Origin: a virus
Reading direction: 5' to 3' (one strand)
DNA: 36,345 nucleotides
UHGV virus genome: UHGV-0073579
This document shows, one piece after another, positions 6,572 through 35,003 of the stretch. Below the pieces are notes generated by a model. It was not told where the DNA came from and searched no databases. It worked only from the letters and a program-made list of their open reading frames with translations. Position 1 is the stretch's first letter; the number at the start of each line of letters is the position of its first letter. The position numbers and the translations under genes are program-made.

Positions 6572-7899
6572 TGTCCGTTCCTATAAATGAGTTTCTGACC
6601 AGTTTTAGGGTTCGTTGCCGTCGCGCCTTCTGATATCCAACTTGGCGCAGCTTTTGTCTGCCCATTACCACCTTGTGGTGTAGGCTGCGCTGGGACATCG
6701 TCAAATAGCTTGGCCTTCCTTCTCCCTAAGCTTTTTTTTAGCCCTTGAGGAATAGTATCTCCATACGTATCCAGATATTCGTCTACCTGCTGGTTAAACT
6801 GCTGCCCCATAGCGTTGGCGTTAATTTTGGCTGCGTTAACAATGTTATCCCTCGCTTCCTGTGACAAGCCATTCCCTGCATTAAGCTGGTCTACATATCC
6901 TTTTATCTGCCCCCATATGCCATCAGAGCGCATGACCTGAACCTGTTCACCTTCGCGAACAACTGACTGAGGGTCGAGAGACTTCATGTAATTAAAGATA
7001 ATCCCAAGTTGGGCAGCGCCAGTATTTACCTTGCTAAGGGCTTGCAGAGAGTTTGCCGCCGCTCTGACAGAGTTATAATTTTTGCCAAAATTGGTAATAT
7101 CAGAATTTAATCCCTTAATTAAGTCTGCTGACGGCTTACCTTTTTGCCCCAGCTCCATTAGCTTCAATCCCATCTCATCTGAGTGCATTTGTGCCCGCTG
7201 AGCCCTGTCTAGTTGAGCGTTCTGGATATTTGCCCATCCTCTCGCATTCTCCATATCAGCCTGACGGATGCTTTCATCCAATCGCCCTTTCTCAAGTTGG
7301 CGACCAACCATCTTATCCTGATAATCCAGCATTTTATCCGGACCAACAGCCCCTAGCGTCATAGTAGTCAGCATGTGTGATAGCTGCTCTGGATTCTGGA
7401 TACCTGTCTGAATCATCCAGTCAGCATTAGCGCCAACGCGATTTAACCTGTCCTTGTTGTCAGTAATGAATTTACTGTAGGCTTCCGGTCCCTGAGAAAG
7501 AGCGACGTTAGCCCTCATGGCTAAATCGCCCATATCGTTGCGTTGCTGATCATTAAGACCGGAAAACGCCTGTTGTGCCTGTGCAACAAACGCTGGATTT
7601 TCCTGGGCAAACTTAAATAGTCCCGATGGATCACCAGAAGCCCATGCATCAGCGTGAACCTTATTGAACGCACTAATAGCTTTCTGTTGCTGTTCCTGAT
7701 TGTAAATATCAGCAACTCCAGCCAGACCACGTAACGCGGTCAGACCAACGTTATTTGCACCTGAGCGAGCCAGTTCATTGTTTTCGCGGATCAGACCAAG
7801 CGTTGCGTTAATGTCGCTTGCCTTTGGCGCATTCTCATTTTGCGCACCGATGCCAGCAAGAAACCCACCAGAATTAATACCCTGTTGCCACGTAGCCAT
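6556..7899 (-). CDS. Ejection protein, P22 gp20-like
   Basis: 447 aa; position between gp7-like and gp16-like genes; sequence recalled as gp20-like. Confidence 0.8.
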
Positions 7900-7909
7900 T
7901 GATTACCCC

Positions 7910-8602
7910 TTAAAACAACGAGCCAAGCAGACCAAGACCAGCACCGATACCAGCACCCCACGGAGTTGATAGCTCGAGAGCACTGGCTATGCCACCACCC
8001 AAAAGTGCACCGGATGCAGCACCACTAACCCCCTGCTGCAATGCTGACGGTCGGTTGGCGTTTGCCGCAGCCAGCGCCGCGCTTTGCTGTGAAATCTGAC
8101 TCATGTTGTTGGCATATGTTTGCCCGGCGTTTGCCTGTCCCTGAAGAGCGCCAAGACCGATATTTGCCAGGTTGTTGTAATTGTTCATTTGTCCAGATAG
8201 CCATTGCTGACCAAGCGTTGGTGCGATTGTTGCTAACTGATTACTGGTTGCGGTGGAACCCAATCCACCTGTTGCTTCCGCTGCCGCCAGACTCTGATAG
8301 CGAGCCTGACCAGCAAGATCTTTGTACTGCTGAGAGTTGTAATACTGGTTAAGTGCCTGACCTTGCCCCTCCAGAGACGATAAGTTCTCGAGGCTGCCGA
8401 CATACTTCTCAGCCAGAGGAGTAAACGGTTTCAGGTTGTTCATGATGGTGTTGAACTGCTGATTTTGCAGGTCTGCGGCATACTTCTGAGCTTCTGCGGC
8501 ATACTTTGCACTTTTATCAGAACTGCCACCTTTCCCGCCTTTTTCAGGGTAATAAGGTTCCTCGCCGCGCAGTTTTCTGCCCAGCTTAAATGCATATAAC
8601 AT
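7910..8602 (-). CDS. Ejection protein, P22 gp7-like
   Basis: 230 aa; MLYAFKLGRKLRGEEPYYPEKGGKGG N-terminus and Gly-rich C-terminus ...TPWGAGIGAGLGLLGSLF match P22 gp7. Confidence 0.85.
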   Translation of the reverse strand: MLYAFKLGRKLRGEEPYYPEKGGKGGSSDKSAKYAAEAQKYAADLQNQQFNTIMNNLKPFTPLAEKYVGSLENLSSLEGQGQALNQYYNSQQYKDLAGQARYQSLAAAEATGGLGSTATSNQLATIAPTLGQQWLSGQMNNYNNLANIGLGALQGQANAGQTYANNMSQISQQSAALAAANANRPSALQQGVSGAASGALLGGGIASALELSTPWGAGIGAGLGLLGSLF

Positions 8603-8604
8603 GG

Positions 8605-9060
8605 CTATCTCCCGTGATTCAGGAAGTCGATTAGTTCTTCGCGTGTTGCGCTGTAAAAAGTCACGTCATCCACGCCTTTGAAGTATTTCTTGATGGTTCC
8701 TACACGCTTAAGGCCAATCATTGCGCAGTACATCTGACCGTGGCGGAATTTGCGCGCAGCGAACGATGTGACGCACTGAACGGTGGTGTTAGTCAGAATG
8801 TATCGCCAGAACGCCAGCCCGATTTCCTTGCTGAAGCCGCGAATCTCTGGCAGGTACATGGCGTGGCAATCGAATGTCAGCGGCTGAATCTCCTGATAGT
8901 AAACAATGCCGCCGAACTGTCCGTGCACGTTAACCTCAAAGTAACGGCATTCAGGTTTGTAGTCGTATCCATCACCGTTGTTGCTCCCGGCGATAATGTC
9001 AGGGTGATTTCCTACTGCTTCTATCAGGTCGATGTTTCGCGTTGGTTTGAATGTAATCAT
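8605..9060 (-). CDS. P22 gp14-like head/ejection-associated protein
   Basis: 151 aa; position between tail needle and gp7 genes. Confidence 0.65.
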   Translation of the reverse strand: MITFKPTRNIDLIEAVGNHPDIIAGSNNGDGYDYKPECRYFEVNVHGQFGGIVYYQEIQPLTFDCHAMYLPEIRGFSKEIGLAFWRYILTNTTVQCVTSFAARKFRHGQMYCAMIGLKRVGTIKKYFKGVDDVTFYSATREELIDFLNHGR

Positions 9061-9761
9061 CAGTCAATCAGCCCATGTAATCTAAGTGCCGTTTCAATCG
9101 CCAGAATACGCTGCCGCGCCTGCTGCAAACCTGTAGCGAGAGCCGCGACTTCGGATTGTGTGTACGTAGTGCCGACCGTGTATGACTGGTTAGCGTTGAA
9201 TGAGCCAAGAAGAGGTGTACCTGTGGCTGCAGTCCATCCGGTATTTCTTGCTCCAACAACCTGAATTCCATCAACTGAATATGATGTTTTTACATCCAGC
9301 GGTGACGCAAGAGACTGCGATTCGGTTACGGTTTTCGATACGTAATCACTCTTAATGCCAGAGACATCGTTTTCTACGTCATCCAGTCTTTGGTCAACAG
9401 TGACCAGATGCGCCTGAATATCGATAACCTCATCCAGCAAGTAATCAACATCGCTACGCAGTACGACTATCTTCCCTTCGGCAGTTGTTAACCTGACCTC
9501 AAGTAGATTTATCGCTTTTGTGTTTTCGGTGATTCTTGCGTCGTGATCAGCCAGTTCGACATCCTGTTCATCGTTTTTTACCTGGGCATCGTAAGCGCCC
9601 TGACCAGCCTGATTTGCCTTCCCGGCAATTGCGCCGACATCAGCCCCCTGATTAATGACATACAGCAGGTAAGACTGGCTGAATATATTGCGTGGAAGGA
9701 TTGATGTATCGAGTCGTGTAGCCTGAATTGTTACCGGCTCATTGAGATTCGAATCAGCCAT
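9060..9761 (-). CDS. Tail needle protein, P22 gp26-like
   Basis: 233 aa; [25 protein letters not shown]...[21 protein letters not shown] matches gp26 at both ends. Confidence 0.9.
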
Positions 9762-11179
9762 TACTCAATCCTTATCTGGCAACCAGACAGAGTGACAGGT
9801 GACTTCGTGATAACGCGCAATTTGAAGCCGACATTTTTCCTGATGCGCCCTACTCGCTTCCACAAAACACGTTTGTCGTAAACGAACGGTTCATTCTGCT
9901 CAATCATCTGCTCACGCCCGTAATTGATGCCGTCAGTGGTTGCAGAGAGAAAAAGGCGGTCAGCATACTGAGCGACACCAGTCGATGATTCAACTTCCAG
10001 ATCAAAACATCTGGCGTTCTCAGCTTTGAAGAGTGGTGTAAACAACAGGTGTTCTTGCTGTAGCCCATACTGGCTGCTGATATCGAACTGCAATTTGCCG
10101 ATAACCGATTCCAGCTTATCGCCGCACGTTATCTGATTGCCTTCGTAAATGAAGTCGATAGCGCGGTACACATCGTCATACAGGCCTGTTTTCAGCACAC
10201 ACCATTGCGGACCATTGGCGCTTGAAGATGCGTCGTACACGAGGACGTGACGCGGAAGGTGGATAATCAGCAACTCATGAGCATCAAATCGCAGAGACTC
10301 CATCACGCCATCAGCCAGTTCATCAGCAGTGTAGGAGCGGAGGATTTTCTCAATGCTCGCGCTGGCGATTGGTGACACCTGACCGGAGCCGATGATGTAT
10401 ACAGACGGCGCACCTGTTGCCGGATTGCTGATGAACGCATAAGAATCAGCGAATGGCGTTTTGCAGTAAGTCCCAGCAATACCTTTCTGTACCATCAGCG
10501 ATGGCTGCGCGACATACAAAGCAGCACCAACTGTAGTTGCGCCTGTCAGGGAGAAATATTCAATCGTCGATGAACCAAAGCAGACGATAAAGTCTCGCCA
10601 TGTACCTATGCCGATGATGCCGTCAGGCTGAGACTCAGCACGATATTGTGCGCTGTAACGGTCAGGATGCGATTCGTCTTCAAGGTCAGTGATAAACCAT
10701 GAATCAGTGCCGTCTTTTGACCACGCATAACGCCCACGCAAGCGCGTAATGTCGCGGACTGAGCCTAACTCATACTGCGTGAATCCACTGTCTGTAGGCC
10801 AGTTTGAGACGGTTTTAACCGTGCCATCATAGCGATACTCGACCAGTTGACCATTAACGCCTACAGCCTGAGATGTTCGACCATGCGCCATTGATACGCG
10901 ACCACTTCCGGCGACGTCACCTACTTCGCTTTCGCCTTTGTAGAGCTTGCCGCCACACACACGATAAACAGCATTCTGCGCCATGTTGTACTCGACGCCG
11001 CGCGATACGCCGTTCACATCAGAACGTTTGGCAATGCCCGGGAATGAGCGAAGATATCCGCTACTGTTGAGGATTTCTTTGGGGGTAGCCAACATATTCA
11101 CTGGCAGATAGTCGATATAGTCGGCGTTTCGAAAGTCTTTGCCGACACCTTTCATAAGCGGAAGTTGCTGAATCGGCAT
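9761..11179 (-). CDS. Tail accessory / portal-closure protein, P22 gp10-like
   Basis: 472 aa; [48 protein letters not shown]... is near-identical to recalled P22 gp10. Confidence 0.9.
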
Positions 11180-20505: not shown

Positions 20506-20581
20506 TGGTGCTGGTTAACGGACTTGAACCGCTACCCATTCGCTTACAAGGCGACTGCTCTACCATTGGAGCTAAACCAGC
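20506..20581 (-). tRNA. tRNA-Thr (anticodon UGU)
   Basis: Hand-folded 76-nt cloverleaf: acceptor GCTGGTT/AACCAGC, D-arm GCTC-CAATGGTA-GAGC, anticodon loop CTTGTAA, T-arm AGCGG-TTCAAGT-CCGTT, 3' ACCA; one G-A mismatch in anticodon stem. Confidence 0.6.
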
Positions 20582-20586
20582 ATGTT

Positions 20587-20661
20587 TGGCGGGACAGCGT
20601 GGACTCGAACCACGATAAGAAGGTTAACAGCCTTCCGTAATGACCTTTATATGACTGACCC
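20587..20661 (-). tRNA. tRNA-like element, Asn-type anticodon arm (GUU), aberrant D-arm; possibly a pseudo-tRNA
   Basis: T-arm CGTGG-TTCGAGT-CCACG and anticodon arm GAAGG-CTGTTAA-CCTTC match tRNA-Asn; acceptor has one T-T mismatch; D-stem does not pair. Confidence 0.4.
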
Positions 20662-20752: not shown

Positions 20753-21241
20753 CTATGCTACATGTTTAATTTTCTCTACACGTTTCCGGTTTTTAAACGC
20801 ACTATCCAGAACCGGATAAATCATAAACAACGAGGCATTGAGGATTTCGTCAACTTCCCGGCGACAGGTTGCGAGCGATGGTTTTTGAATGCGCCCGCCG
20901 CCCCGGCATAACATCTTGCGAGGTCTTGCGACACGATGATAGTAAGATGCAATGGCGTGCTTGGAAGATCCATGAGCGTAGTAGCTGAGGAGGATGCCAA
21001 ATGCTTTCTTGTCAATGTACATGACGGAATCGACGACCTGAGAAATCAACATTCCATCATCATCATTGCACATTGGCCTTGTCATAACTCTTCCCGGCTC
21101 TACGCTCTCCATGAACTTCGCTATTACGCTGCTCATGCGCTTTTCCAGACGACCTGAATAAACCCATGCGCCCCACAGTTCAAGCCAGCCATTCAGCCAC
21201 TCGTGCTGTTCTTTGGTGAGGTTTAGTTCTCTTATGCTCAT
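20753..21241 (-). CDS. Antitermination protein Q-like
   Basis: 162 aa; lies between the nin region and the tRNA/lysis block; family assignment from memory and position. Confidence 0.6.
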   Translation of the reverse strand: MSIRELNLTKEQHEWLNGWLELWGAWVYSGRLEKRMSSVIAKFMESVEPGRVMTRPMCNDDDGMLISQVVDSVMYIDKKAFGILLSYYAHGSSKHAIASYYHRVARPRKMLCRGGGRIQKPSLATCRREVDEILNASLFMIYPVLDSAFKNRKRVEKIKHVA

Positions 21242-21785: not shown

Positions 21786-22060
21786 TGGACAAACACCCTC
21801 CCATTGTTAACCAATTTTTTGAGGGTAAGCACAATGGCCCGATCCATTTCAGCCCTTCGCTCTTCCCTGCTCATATCTCTCCCATTATCAATTCTTGAAT
21901 GACAATCAACACATAGCGCAGCAGTAAGGCAATCATCTACTTTAATCCCAACCCCCTTCCCTTCATTTCTGTGAGCGGCCTGAACTCCGTATCTTCCGCA
22001 AAGAACGCAAAATTCAATATCCCTGACTGCCTGAAGCCATTTTTTGCTTCTAAACATCAA
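21782..22060 (-). CDS. Cys-rich small protein (DUF1364-like), commonly paired with rusA
   Basis: 92 aa with CVLC...C...CVDCH cysteine pattern; ends 4 nt inside the rusA start. Confidence 0.5.
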   Translation of the reverse strand: MMFRSKKWLQAVRDIEFCVLCGRYGVQAAHRNEGKGVGIKVDDCLTAALCVDCHSRIDNGRDMSREERRAEMDRAIVLTLKKLVNNGRVFVQ

Positions 22061-22559
22061 TCCCCTCCAAAAAACGTCGGTACGCTGATTTGTTTTTTAT
22101 GTTGCACACTGTCTGCGCACAAACACCAAATTCTTTGGCTATATCTCTGTATTTGCCTTTTGATTTATATATTGATTTCACTTGTTCTGGCGTTAGTTTG
22201 CAGAAGTGATGATTAAAACCATGAACAAGCAACCCGGAATCAAATCCATGTTTAGCATTTTCTGTTCGCGTTACCCACTCGAGATTTTCAACTTTATTAT
22301 TAAGTTTATTTCCATCCTTGTGATTAACTTCCGGTTTGCCATCTGGGTTATCAATAAATACTTCTGCAACAATTCTGTGAACCATTTTATATGATGGTCT
22401 TTTCCCGCCACCTGGATACAGACCGACAAATGCATATCCTCCTGGTTTAATACCATGAGATAATTTTTTTGATTTACGGCATGAAATGATGTCTCCATTT
22501 TCAGTTACTTTATATATACCCTCAAAGCCGGGGATATCTTTTTCTTTAACATCACTCAT
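22050..22559 (-). CDS. HNH homing endonuclease (NUMOD4-like N-terminus, C-terminal HTH)
   Basis: 169 aa; GFEGIYKVTENGDIIS; HNH core EVNHKDGNKLNNKVENLEWVTRTENAKHG. Confidence 0.85.
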   Translation of the reverse strand: MSDVKEKDIPGFEGIYKVTENGDIISCRKSKKLSHGIKPGGYAFVGLYPGGGKRPSYKMVHRIVAEVFIDNPDGKPEVNHKDGNKLNNKVENLEWVTRTENAKHGFDSGLLVHGFNHHFCKLTPEQVKSIYKSKGKYRDIAKEFGVCAQTVCNIKNKSAYRRFLEGIDV

Positions 22560-23769: not shown

Positions 23770-23804
23770 CCCAAATAAAAAGGCCTGCGATTACCAGCAG
23801 GCCT
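23770..23804 (-). terminator. Rho-independent terminator after replication operon (tR2-like position)
   Basis: aggcctgc-gattacca-gcaggcct hairpin followed by TTTTTATTTG on the minus strand. Confidence 0.55.
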
Positions 23805-26855: not shown

Positions 26856-27134
26856 TCAGGCCTCGAAGAATTCGCAGTTCTTCGGGGCTTTTTCTTTTGT
26901 CAGCATTCTGGCTACTTTCTTAGCCAGTTCCGCCAACTCCTCGTCTTCAACACCCCACTCCAGTACAGCCAGAAGCATGGCCATCTTTGGGATAAAGCTG
27001 TCTTTCCATCGCGAAATTTGCGATTCATTGATCCCTAATGCATCAGCAACCTTTCGCTGACCACGTACAGCAATTCGATTCAGGATGTTGCTTGTAATTG
27101 CATTCGCTTTCTTGCGAGTACTTGTAAGTTCCAT
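26856..27134 (-). CDS. cII: CII-type transcriptional activator (P22 c1-like)
   Basis: Start at internal Met: [61 protein letters not shown]. Confidence 0.8.
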
Positions 27135-27192
27135 ATGTAAGTATTTCCTTAACAAATAAGAAGTTATGCGCATCAACTTATGCGCGTTGTAT

Positions 27193-27236
27193 TCCCGCAT
27201 TTCGGCGGGAATGAGGACCATGACTGTTAAAGAGCA
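27193..27236 (-). promoter_or_regulatory. nutR (boxA plus boxB hairpin)
   Basis: Minus-strand tgctctttaacag (boxA-like), spacer, then hairpin tcccgc-cgaaat-gcggga; same elements as at the nutL site. Confidence 0.6.
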
Positions 27237-27242
27237 ATTTGC

Positions 27243-27428
27243 TTATGCCGCTTTGCGGTAAGCGCTTTCTTGATACTTCAGGGCGCCAGCTGTAACGACT
27301 TCCAGTCGATAGGCGTCTTTCTCTGGGATGACTTCCTTCCACTGAGAGACTGCTGCGTCGCTAATGCCTAACGCTTTAGCTACAGCACGCTGGGTTCCGA
27401 AGTGGTCGATAACATCTTTCTTGTACAT
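27243..27428 (-). CDS. cro: Cro repressor (P22-type)
   Basis: 61 aa; MYKKDVIDHFGTQRAVAKALGISDAAVSQWKEVIPEKDAYRLEVVTAGALKYQ essentially P22 Cro. Confidence 0.9.
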   Translation of the reverse strand: MYKKDVIDHFGTQRAVAKALGISDAAVSQWKEVIPEKDAYRLEVVTAGALKYQESAYRKAA

Positions 27429-27508
27429 AGACTCGCTCCGAAATTAAAGAACACTTAAATTATCCACTAAAGGAATCTTAAGTCAAGTTTATTTAAGATG
27501 TCTTAACT
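27429..27508. promoter_or_regulatory. OR operator region with pR and pRM
   Basis: Three about 18-bp operator-like sites with ATTTAAG...CTTAAAT half-site symmetry between divergent cro and c2. Confidence 0.65.
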
Positions 27509-28159
27509 ATGAAAACTCAATTGATGGGAGAGCGCATTCGCGCTCGGAGAAAAGAACTCAAGATCAGGCAGGCCGCACTTGGAAAGATGGTCGGCGTGTC
27601 TAATGTTGCCATATCTCAGTGGGAACGCTCTGAGACAGAGCCAAATGGAGAGAATCTTCTCGCCCTGGCTAATGCGTTGAAGTGTTCCCCTGACTATCTG
27701 ATGAAAGGAGAGGAAAGTCTTTCAAACATTGCCTATCACAGTAGGCATGATCCAAGAGGGTCATACCCTCTGATTAGCTGGGTGAGCGCAGGATGCTGGA
27801 TGGAAGCTGTAGAACCATATCATAAGCGTGCAATAGATAACTGGTACGATACAACCGTAGACTGTTCAGAAGATTCGTTTTGGTTGGACGTGAAGGGAGA
27901 CTCAATGACGGCTCCGGCCGGTCTCAGTATCCCTGAAGGAATGATAATACTCGTCGATCCTGAAGTAGAGCCGCGTAACGGGAAACTGGTAGTTGCAAAG
28001 CTCGAAGGAGAAAACGAGGCAACTTTCAAGAAGTTAGTTATTGATGCAGGCAGGAAGTTTCTAAAACCACTTAACCCACAATATCCGATGATCGAGATCA
28101 ACGGAAACTGCAAAATCATCGGCGTAGTTGTCGATGCAAAACTAGCAAACCTTCCATAA
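27509..28159 (+). CDS. c2: Prophage repressor, P22 C2-type (HTH plus S24 autoprotease domain)
   Basis: 216 aa; MKTQLMGERIRARRKELKIRQAALGKMVGVSNVAISQWERSETEPNGENLLAL... and C-terminal ...GDSMTAPAGLSIPEGMIILVDPEVEP... essentially P22 C2. Confidence 0.95.
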   Translation: MKTQLMGERIRARRKELKIRQAALGKMVGVSNVAISQWERSETEPNGENLLALANALKCSPDYLMKGEESLSNIAYHSRHDPRGSYPLISWVSAGCWMEAVEPYHKRAIDNWYDTTVDCSEDSFWLDVKGDSMTAPAGLSIPEGMIILVDPEVEPRNGKLVVAKLEGENEATFKKLVIDAGRKFLKPLNPQYPMIEINGNCKIIGVVVDAKLANLP

Positions 28160-28185
28160 GGGGGCATTCGCCCCTTTTTTTTATT
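28160..28185 (+). terminator. Rho-independent terminator after c2
   Basis: ggggc-attc-gcccc hairpin followed by T8. Confidence 0.55.
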
Positions 28186-28204
28186 TCCTTTAAAAATCAA
28201 AGCC

Positions 28205-28285
28205 AAACTTAAGTTACGGAAGAAAATTTAAGTTTTCTTCAAAAATACTCTTGACCATTAATTAAAGAGATCTTAAATTTAAGCC
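28205..28285 (+). promoter_or_regulatory. pL promoter with OL operators
   Basis: -35 TTGACC, 17-bp spacer, -10-like TAAATT; overlapping operator-like site attaaagagatcttaaat and a second upstream. Confidence 0.5.
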
Positions 28286-28324
28286 ATCAGCAGGACGCTG
28301 GAAGCCAAACGGAACAGATTGGCA

Positions 28325-28366
28325 GGCTCTTTAACATTGATGGGATTGTCCCGCCGAAATGCGGGA
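28325..28366 (+). promoter_or_regulatory. nutL (boxA plus boxB hairpin)
   Basis: ggctctttaaca followed by hairpin tcccgc-cgaaat-gcggga; boxB is the exact reverse complement of the element at 27193-27210. Confidence 0.6.
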
Positions 28367-28679
28367 ACCAAAGAGTAGTTGGCTTTGGGGTGACGTGAAG
28401 TGCAGCTGCACGACGGCAACCGGAAGATAAGCACCCGGCGCGTCACCGCCAAAGTCAATTCCATAGGCGTTATGCAGCCGCCACCATATTCAAGAAAGCT
28501 GCACAAGAGGTAGGAGGATTTATGTGAATGCATAACTTCAAAACCGAGGTTAATTAAATCTCTCGATCCGAGCATCGACCTATTAGGTGGCGAGATGCTC
28601 TTTCTGCCCCTCAGTTCGAGGGGCCAGAAACCACTTTGCAATCACTATCAATTCCAAAGTTGTTTCATCGGAGGTCAAC

Positions 28680-28979
28680 ATGACAGTAGTCATTACATAT
28701 CTGGCTGACGATAACGCCAGAAATCGCCGCAGAGCACGCAGACAGGCTCAACGTGAACAGGCAATGCAAGAGCAGCGACTGGCGCGAAAGATTGCGCTAA
28801 AGCTCTCTGGTTGCGTCAGAGCAGATAAAGCAGCATCACTCGGAAGCCTTCGCTGCAAGAAGGCAGAAGAAGTCGAGCGTAAACAGAATCGTATTTACTA
28901 CCGCAAGCCACGCAGTGAAATGGGTGTGACTTGTGTTGGTCGCCAGAAAATGAAATTAGGCAGCAAACCACTTATTTGA
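28680..28979 (+). CDS. N-like antiterminator with arginine-rich motif
   Basis: Start at internal ATG with GGAGG RBS; MTVVITYLADDNARNRRRARRQAQREQAMQEQRLARK; first gene after pL and nutL. Confidence 0.7.
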   Translation: MTVVITYLADDNARNRRRARRQAQREQAMQEQRLARKIALKLSGCVRADKAASLGSLRCKKAEEVERKQNRIYYRKPRSEMGVTCVGRQKMKLGSKPLI

Positions 28980-28990
28980 GAGGAATTAAT

Positions 28991-29614
28991 ATGTCATCAA
29001 TCCGCTTAACTACGAGAATGAAAGAGAAAATCGCTCGTAACGCTTTAATTAAGTCTGGGGTTTTCACTGAACTTGAAGAAGTAACAAAGTTAAAGAACCA
29101 GCTTGCACTTGACGCCAGAGTTATTGCGTTTGGCGGTAAAAAGAAAACTGAGGAAGTGGATCAGTTATCATCCAGGTTAGTAGCTATAAGTGAAGAACTT
29201 GAAAAGATGGGATGTTCATTTTACTCATACGATGTTCGTTCTACTTCAATTTATCTGACTGTATCTGGCAGAAGGGTTGGATGGCATTCATATGGGAAAG
29301 ACGGCAACGGCGAAGATATATTGCTCCCTACTCCAACCAAAGATAAATGCATGTTTGATGCAGAACACGAAATAACAAAAAGGTTTGATGAAATCTGCGC
29401 ATTGCAACAAAAACTTGAAGCCAAGAAAAAGGATATCGAATCAAATGTATGGGCTGCTTTGAACTCAGTCACAACAGTTAAGCGACTTATTGAAGTTTGG
29501 CCTGAAAGCAAAGAATTGCTACCAAAAGAAGCAGACAAAGCAAGTACAGCACTTCCTGCTTTACGGGTAGAAGATTTGAATAAGATGATTGGACTTCCTT
29601 CCGAGTCCGCATAG
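28991..29614 (+). CDS. Hypothetical 207-aa protein, first gene after N
   Basis: ATG at 28991 with GAGAGGAA RBS; no family recognised. Confidence 0.55.
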   Translation: MSSIRLTTRMKEKIARNALIKSGVFTELEEVTKLKNQLALDARVIAFGGKKKTEEVDQLSSRLVAISEELEKMGCSFYSYDVRSTSIYLTVSGRRVGWHSYGKDGNGEDILLPTPTKDKCMFDAEHEITKRFDEICALQQKLEAKKKDIESNVWAALNSVTTVKRLIEVWPESKELLPKEADKASTALPALRVEDLNKMIGLPSESA

Positions 29615-29838
29615 TCGGCCTTTATTTTTGGCACTAACAACAGAATAAACACTGCACTGTGTATTCATTCCAACGAGTGAATACACGGAGCAATGTCGCT
29701 CTTAACTAAACAGGAGCCGACTTGTTCTGATTATTGGAAATCTTCTTTGCCCTCCAGTGTGAGGGCTTTTTTATATGCATACCAATAACGCTTCACTCGA
29801 GGCGTTTTCGTTATGCAATCAAATATAAGGAGTTACCC

Positions 29839-34051: not shown

Positions 34052-34486
34052 TGGACTCCTTCGCGAAATATACGATTATTGACTGGATAGCATTCCTTCA
34101 GGTTTTGCTCATCTGGTTTTATATGGCTTACAGGAGTGGACAGTGGATTGTCAGTGTAGCCTGTAGCAAGTGATGGCGTTGGTGGAACCGAAAGAATAAA
34201 AAAGCGCTGGCCTTGGATTCGTTTTACGAAGCATTCAATCTTAACAGTCTTCAGCCTGGTTCTGTCGTTGTAGTCACCACTCAAAGTGGCATGACCATTC
34301 AGATTCATAAACCAAAAGAGGAAAAATGATGTGGCCTATATGTGTTAATTGCGGACGGATGTGCCTATCTGGATGGTGCCGAAAGTGCGACAAATGCACG
34401 AAGCAAAGACAATAACAATCCTCGCACTCGCGGGGATTTCTTTTATCTGAACTCGCTACGGCGGGTTTTGTTTTATGGAGATGATT

Positions 34487-34806: not shown

Positions 34807-34989
34807 TTGGAGAAATCACTAATGCACTTCCGAGTTACAGGTGAATGGAATGGAGAGCCATTTAACAGAGTTATCGAAGCAGAGAACATCAACGACTGCT
34901 ACGACCACTGGATGATATGGGCGCAGATAGCACATGCAGACGTAACCAATATTCGAATTGAAGAACTGAAAGAACACCAAGCCGCCTGA
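34807..34989 (+). CDS. Small hypothetical protein upstream of xis
   Basis: 60-aa ORF with GGAG RBS; followed by a terminator hairpin. Confidence 0.4.
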   Translation: MEKSLMHFRVTGEWNGEPFNRVIEAENINDCYDHWMIWAQIAHADVTNIRIEELKEHQAA

Positions 34990-35003
34990 TGGCGGTTTTT
35001 TCT
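34978..35003 (+). terminator. Rho-independent terminator upstream of xis
   Basis: gccgcc-tgat-ggcggt hairpin followed by T6. Confidence 0.5.

Follow-up and report, generated by a model that had tools for sequence, protein, structure and literature searches.

Putative HK620-type nut sites on either side of the immunity region of a P22-like phage genome

The known N-peptide/boxB specificity pairs, those of the phages lambda, P22 and 21, are among the closest described systems against which a new N-utilization (nut) site can be read. The lambda boxB is a 5-bp stem capped by a GAAAA or GAAGA pentaloop (PMC2724277), the P22 boxB carries a GACAA pentaloop with a looped-out C (PMC12550061; PDB 1A4T), and the phage 21 boxB carries a CUAACC hexaloop that forms a GNRA-like UAAC turn flanked by a noncanonical C–C pair (PMC12550061), with the phage 21 N peptide–boxB RNA structure available as PDB 1NYB. 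As for boxA, the lambda sequence is CGCUCUUA and N activity rises when it is converted to consensus, the Escherichia coli rrn sequence is UGCUCUUUA (with its spacer, ugcucuuuaacaa; Table 1 of the same paper), and an AUU trinucleotide in the spacer is critical for NusA binding (PMC2724277). In the literature on P22-like phages, new N N-termini have been taken to imply new boxB specificities (PMC2629481), and identical boxB sites have been taken to imply a shared specificity (PMC8022706). A further pair is recorded in the 2001 GenBank entry of phage HK620 (AF335538.1), which annotates "nutL; putative N-utilization leftward" and "nutR; putative N-utilization rightward"; in the literature searched we found no paper that carries the boxB or motif sequence or treats the HK620 nut sites. 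Here we analyze the viral genome UHGV-0073579 (36,345 nucleotides (nt), the whole of which is referred to as the window), in which two boxA–hairpin units flank the immunity region upstream of a gene for an arginine-rich, N-like protein. From sequence comparison we consider it very probable (roughly 0.9) that these units are the functional nutR and nutL of a lambda-type N system, that they are of the HK620 specificity type, and that they serve this N protein.

The boxA–hairpin units and their counterparts in described phages

The 18-nt hairpin sequence TCCCGCCGAAATGCGGGA occurs only twice in the window, once on each strand (boxB rows of Table 1), against a shuffle expectation of 0.04 when up to three mismatches are allowed. 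A repeat finder returned the two copies as a perfect 19-nt inverted repeat (27192–27210 and 28349–28367), bearing out the first-pass annotation of this DNA, which had placed identical hairpins in inverted orientation on either side of the immunity region. The boxA sequence GCTCTTTAACA is likewise present only twice, at 27225–27235 (−) and 28326–28336 (+), the nutL copy reading GGCUCUUUAACA. The same annotation had called the nut sites identical, which holds for the boxA core and boxB and fails for the sites as a whole: the base preceding boxA is U (T in the DNA) at nutR and G at nutL, and the boxA–boxB spacers differ both in length (14 nt at nutR vs. 12 nt at nutL) and in sequence. Folding of the boxB RNA, which had been proposed as a check, gave a 6-bp stem capped by a 6-nt loop (−9.7 kcal/mol), and at nutR the stem reaches 8 bp (AUUCCCGC/GCGGGAAU, over 27191–27212).

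Each of the two divergent early operons carries one unit, in the orders pL, nutL, N and cro, nutR, cII. The nutR boxA starts 7 nt past the cro stop codon on the minus strand, downstream of a pR-like promoter, and the nutL unit lies ~40 nt past the pL start on the plus strand and ~310 nt ahead of N. A promoter scan found only two sites in the immunity region, pR and pL, both where expected, so that the two boxA–hairpin units are both transcribed in sense. Features boxA-R, nutR, boxA-L and nutL are annotated in the phage 21 record OL657228, and the window elements align with them position for position; together with their identity to the putative HK620 sites, this upholds the earlier placement of the hairpins where nutR and nutL are expected.

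The first nine nt of the nutR boxA, UGCUCUUUAACA, equal the E. coli rrn boxA, and the full element corresponds to the rrn boxA extended by the opening bases of the rrn spacer. Because UGCUCUUUAACA matches the rrn boxA, whereas the lambda boxA is one U short, the nutR boxA is by its sequence a full consensus NusB/NusE site. The AUU trinucleotide is present in both window spacers. The rrn system works without N or boxB, whereas the window units include a phage-specific hairpin and are accompanied by an N protein.

The closest match in specificity is HK620. Its nutL is identical to that of the window (42 of 42 nt), its nutR differs solely in the base before GCTCTTTAACA, and its N protein shares residues 1–56 with the window N, including the whole arginine-rich motif; by identity to the AF335538.1 sites and possession of the same motif, the window pair thus falls within the HK620 type. 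The N tails differ, that of HK620 being P22/H-19B-like (ending in CLPNVAIYAAGYRKSKQLTAR) and that of the window phage 21/lambda-like (ending in SEMGVTCVGRQKMKLGSKPLI), as does the immunity cassette, since HK620 has a cI of 238 residues and an extra gene between its nut sites. A search with the nutL–N segment retrieved the same N type from HK620, HK140, HK630, mEpX2, mEp213, ECP1, several Stx phages and others. The nutL/nutR pair of the window is thus already known, having been annotated as putative in HK620, and its detection is correct but ordinary. It does locate the probable switch that takes early transcription on to the replication, recombination and Q genes, and it corrects the public records of N7 and CUS-3, the nearest relatives examined, which annotate no nut sites; otherwise it is textbook lambdoid biology.

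The comparison with phage 21 is also informative. The two share genome layout, boxA and hairpin geometry (a 6-bp stem with a hexaloop), and they are near-identical in the cI terminator, in the operators and pL, in boxA and the 40 nt that precede it, in the leader 3′ of the nutL hairpin and in N residues 34–99. Only the two hairpins and N residues 1–33, which hold the arginine-rich motif, are replaced. The phage 21 hairpins are CUCAAC-CUAACC-GUUGAG and UCACCU-CUAACC-GGGUGA, where the window has UCCCGC-CGAAAU-GCGGGA at both sites with unrelated stems, and the arginine-rich motif is GTAKSRYKARRAELIAERR in phage 21 and DNARNRRRARRQAQREQ in the window. The window pair accordingly lacks the combination of CUAACC hexaloop and GTAKSRYKARR motif that marks the phage 21 type, and at none of the 142 loci described below do the two types mix. 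At the level of sequence, this is the outcome expected of a specificity pair: the RNA-binding peptide and its two presumed targets have been exchanged together while the background stayed constant. The window and the nearly isogenic phage 21 hence form a clean natural experiment, which shows how N specificity modules move.

The arginine-rich motif of the window N occupies residues 8–30, with the core DNARNRRRARR at residues 11–21. This core and a match to PHROG 271 ("anti-termination protein N-like"; E 4.8e-37) place the 99-residue product in the N family, and residues 62–99 (AEEVERKQNRIYYRKPRSEMGVTCVGRQKMKLGSKPLI) align with residues 74–110 of lambda N in the antitermination complex of PDB 6GOV (E 2.5e-4); its identification as N-like was therefore sound. 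Because of the latter alignment, the N C-terminus probably makes a lambda-like contact with RNA polymerase.

The system resembles lambda in this homologous C-terminus, in the order boxA–spacer–boxB, in the placement of the sites after pL and after cro, and in the motif pattern A-x-x-R-R-R-x-R-R, the window version of which is ARNRRRARR. The corresponding lambda N motif is AQTRRRERR. It differs from lambda in its consensus boxA, in its boxB hexaloop as opposed to a pentaloop, and in having no tryptophan aligned with lambda Trp18. The phage as a whole is P22-like (it has Lederbergvirus relatives, a sar RNA and ant), and the P22 gp24 motif starts with N-A-[KR]-x-R-R, similar to the window N; however, the P22 boxB differs from that of the window in sequence and in loop length. 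The comparison with known boxB sequences that had been suggested thus sets the window hairpin apart from the lambda and P22 pentaloops and from the phage 21 CUAACC hexaloop alike.

Motif–loop association and stem covariation across loci

To follow hairpin and motif together we assembled 142 non-redundant loci, gathered in four ways: by N protein in IMG/VR, from a one-genome-per-species set of bacteria, from assemblies whose divergent N proteins had turned up in protein searches, and with a DNA pattern that combines boxA and the loop. A first IMG/VR scan returned near-identical N proteins only and hence no stem variation; stem diversity came from the divergent N proteins and the boxA–loop pattern; the one-genome-per-species bacterial scan with the N alignment yielded five loci only. 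Among the 142 loci, the HK620-type motif is accompanied by a CGAAAU loop (once UGAAAU) in 108/108 detected nutL sites and by CGAAAU or CGUAAU in 89/93 detected nutR sites, and the phage 21-type motif is accompanied by a CUAACC-type loop in all 32 nutL and all 26 detected nutR sites. The four HK620-type nutR exceptions, with loops CUUAAA, UCAU and CUCUAU, look like mis-picks by the simple hairpin finder, for example of operator sequence. Restriction to loci retrieved by protein or annotation, where the loop played no part in selection, leaves HK620-type nutL at 60/60. The pairing of motif and loop is independent of the N C-terminal tail (each motif type is found with five or more tail types) and of the immunity cassette, with inter-hairpin distances of ~1140, 1682, 1725, 2270–2276 and 2847 nt for one and the same nut pair.

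Very divergent N proteins (e.g., MTIVMTILASDNARNRRRAKRAAEREQ...CLPEIALFNAGYRKSQAITAK) that retain the core DNARNRRRA[KR]R have the same loop upstream on changed stems. Paired stem substitutions with the loop kept include CUCCGC/GCGGAG, CUCCAC/GUGGAG, UUCCGC/GCGGAA, GCUCCCAC/GUCGGAGC and CCCUGC/GUGGGG. In a set of 16 distinct hairpins, pairing holds in 86.7% of cells, and both sides have changed in five of eight pairs (16 cells); the observed covariation score was reached by none of 500 shuffles, and pairing fell to 35–62% when the 3′ partner was slid as a control. Because the arginine-rich motif and both hairpins are replaced together relative to phage 21, and because motif and loop are associated across the 142 loci, we link the hairpins to N itself, and the earlier proposal that they are the recognition RNA for the N-like protein at 28680–28979 gains support from sequence.

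Several loops in genuine nut contexts depart from CGAAAU in an orderly manner. One locus (L088) has U-GAAA-U at nutL and C-GUAA-U at nutR; among the matches listed, C-GAGA-U occurs at the nutL of a second (L512, ~1251–1378, −), upstream of an N with SDNSRNRRKARR, and C-GCAA-U at no fewer than three nutR-like sites (L402, L489 and L428), with N off the fetched stretch. The loop-variant scans gave mostly chance matches among those listed, with a handful of genuine nut-like sites, and all variants in genuine nut contexts there have G-N-R-A at positions 2–5, a pyrimidine at position 1 and U at position 6. This suggests that in the loop Y-GNRA-U a genuine GNRA tetraloop may sit on a pyrimidine–U (C–U or U–U) closing mismatch, an architecture that would match the C–C-closed UAAC GNRA mimic of phage 21; the evidence is thin, and we offer this as a hypothesis. 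Whether the HK620-type pair (DNARNRRRA[KR]R with a Y-GNRA-U hexaloop) constitutes a fourth, biochemically uncharacterized specificity class of N peptide and boxB, next to those of lambda, P22 and phage 21, we regard as evenly balanced; no biochemical study of a Y-GNRA-U boxB class was found in the literature searched. Were the HK620-type pair orthogonal to those three, it would offer a further ready-made peptide–RNA tethering tool.

A third N type was encountered in Pseudocitrobacter faecalis (L091), where the N-terminus reads MTNREHKKLLRAIRHQQQLRDN... and the C-terminal tail is unchanged. Its boxA sites, at 1715 (−) and 3005 (+), are followed by other hairpins, GGCCUGAUUCGGGCC and GGGCUGUUCCGGCCC, and from these sequences its N and hairpins look like another specificity pair.

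Proposed antitermination and alternative roles of the hairpins

We hypothesize that the pR (−) and pL (+) transcripts would each carry a consensus boxA followed by boxB UCCCGC-CGAAAU-GCGGGA, that the arginine-rich motif of N (core DNARNRRRARR) would bind the boxB loop and upper stem, that NusB/NusE(S10) would bind boxA and NusA the spacer and N, and that the lambda-like N C-terminus would engage RNA polymerase. Rightward, the modified polymerase would pass the tR1 region and the 23781–23804 terminator, before the nin region and Q; leftward, it would pass the 29749–29806 terminators and beyond. Terminator hairpins are predicted downstream of both nut sites by a consensus scan, these being consensus-type predictions to which Rho-dependent sites are inaccessible.

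Several points weigh against this interpretation. We infer RNA binding, Nus-factor dependence and terminator readthrough from the similarities set out above. Rfam has no nut-site family that could provide an independent RNA-model match: a gathering-threshold search of the whole window matched only the sar RNA and two tRNAs, and a permissive search of 27100–28720 gave no match. The Pfam model PF25694 N_peptide scores the window N at 20.2 bits (E 8.4e-4), under its 27.9-bit gathering threshold; that model is narrower than the biological family, and the PHROG and PDB matches are significant. Many of the 142 loci are closely related, such that the association counts are not counts of independent events, and the covariation set is small (16 hairpins) and drawn partly from a pattern that fixes the loop and partly through a hairpin/stem filter, which favours pairing. 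Finally, nut sites are missing from one locus (L038) that carries this N gene. We rejected it as a counter-example: its N is fused at the ribosome-binding site to virion genes (corresponding to window 7689–10529) and it has no immunity region, and the contig (1–3300) is a rearranged defective prophage or a chimera.

Among the alternatives, the one that retains most credit, while still improbable, is that the inverted pair acts mainly as DNA, supplying "boundary" homology for the exchange of cI/cro cassettes by recombination, with no RNA signal involved. The same nutL/nutR indeed bracket at least five immunity-region lengths, and the CUS-3 record labels the pL–N interval "boundary sequence"; however, such a role leaves unexplained both the compensatory stem changes around a fixed loop and the match of boxA to a NusB/NusE site, and the hairpin type follows the arginine-rich motif of N, not the flanking DNA. 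Use as a recombination point may be incidental, and would best be regarded as a by-product of nut-site conservation. A second alternative, less likely again, would have the hairpins be real RNA elements bound by another factor, which could be a host protein or an exclusion protein of the Nun type, with N recognizing something else. HK022 Nun is known to bind lambda boxB (PMC4124055), and the annotation of the related phage mEp235 lists a Nun-like protein alongside N, but no Nun-like gene is seen in the pL–N interval of the window, and the association of motif type with loop type points to N itself. The least credible reading, that the hairpins are tR0/tL0-like terminators or attenuators opening each early operon, draws on their being G+C-rich and early in the operon and is rejected because neither is followed by a U tract (the sequences there are AAUACAACG and ACCAAAGAG), in addition to which the stem is just 6 bp, the terminator scan reports neither hairpin, and the homologous elements of phage 21 are annotated as nut sites. 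Recognition by N as nut RNA therefore stays our preferred account of the two hairpins.

Genomic surroundings

The window is an E. coli phage genome whose nearest relatives are N7, IME10, CUS-3, Gally and JEP4, and the open reading frames and Pfam matches around the nut sites compose a standard lambdoid immunity region (Table 1).

Table 1. Positions in the window of the nut elements and of associated genes, promoters and terminators
Feature	Position	Strand	Basis or remark
boxA of nutR	27225..27236	−	RNA UGCUCUUUAACA; aligned with annotated boxA-R of phage 21
boxB of nutR	27193..27210	−	RNA UCCCGC-CGAAAU-GCGGGA; identical to annotated HK620 nutR
boxA of nutL	28326..28336	+	GCUCUUUAACA, preceded by G; aligned with phage 21 boxA-L, same distance from pL start
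boxB of nutL	28349..28366	+	RNA UCCCGC-CGAAAU-GCGGGA; identical to HK620 nutL
cII	26856–27134	−	Open reading frame/Pfam
cro, first gene of rightward operon, followed by nutR after its stop	27243..27428	−	Pfam P22_Cro, E 8e-28
pR-like promoter TTGACT-16-GATAAT	27459..27486	−	Promoter scan
cI/C2 repressor (helix-turn-helix and Peptidase_S24), bracketed by the two nut sites	27509..28159	+	Open reading frame, Pfam
cI terminator	28158–28177		Terminator scan
pL-like promoter TTGACC-17-TAAATT, within repeated operator-like sequences	28251..28279	+	Aligned with phage 21 pL/OL
N gene, 99 residues, arginine-rich	28680..28979	+	Open reading frame, PHROG 271, PDB 6GOV
tR1-region candidate, hairpin GCGCAU-AAGUUG-AUGCGC plus U-rich stretch, in the nutR–cII interval	27168..27185	−	Predicted; HK620 annotates tR1 here
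Strong intrinsic-terminator-like hairpin plus U tract, past the primase-helicase gene, ahead of nin region and Q	23781..23804	−	Predicted; position like lambda tR2
Two tandem terminator-like hairpins past N and the Nmad5-domain gene, candidate tL1	29749..29806	+	Predicted
Further terminator-like hairpins ahead of int, leftward operon	34417–34468 and 34979–34998		Predicted
Q antiterminator gene	20756–21241

In IMG/VR loci (L004–L083 and L096–L272), this N gene and nutL/nutR pair recur around immunity regions of five or more sizes, and because of this the nut sites coincide with junctions of immunity-cassette mosaicism. Directly 3′ of nutL, the N leader contains an 85-nt hairpin (28377–28460, +; −40.7 kcal/mol, z-score −5.3), which is kept in phage 21 with pair-preserving changes and is, by analogy, a candidate counterpart of the RNase III/N-translation control structure of the lambda N leader. 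It is followed, still ahead of the N ribosome-binding site, by a variable segment of ~205 bp (28460–28664, +) that is present in CUS-3 (as "bsq5; boundary sequence") and HK140 and absent from N7, phage 21, HK620 and most IMG/VR loci. The segment has the imperfect direct repeat TCAATTCCA on both sides and contains two hairpins, the stem sequences of which differ between the window and CUS-3 with pairing preserved. An identity as a multicopy mobile element was considered and rejected: 159 of 5426 complete E. coli genomes carry the segment, the median number of places per carrier being one.

Antisense to the 3′ end of cII lies a strong terminator-like hairpin (26858–26890, +; 15 pairs and a U tract), recalling the terminator at the end of an oop-like antisense RNA. 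Elsewhere in the window, a P22-type immI region (711–1708) comprises an antirepressor gene (711–1640, −) adjoining the sar antisense RNA (1642–1708, +; Rfam 76.6 bits), two tRNA genes lie just downstream of Q at the start of the late region (20509–20661, −), and the nin region harbours an HNH/NUMOD4 homing-endonuclease-like gene (22053–22559, −). The gene directly 3′ of N (28991–29614, +) encodes a nucleotide modification associated domain 5 (Nmad5) protein (E 3.7e-72); in CUS-3, N7 and phage 21, ral occupies this position or one close to it.

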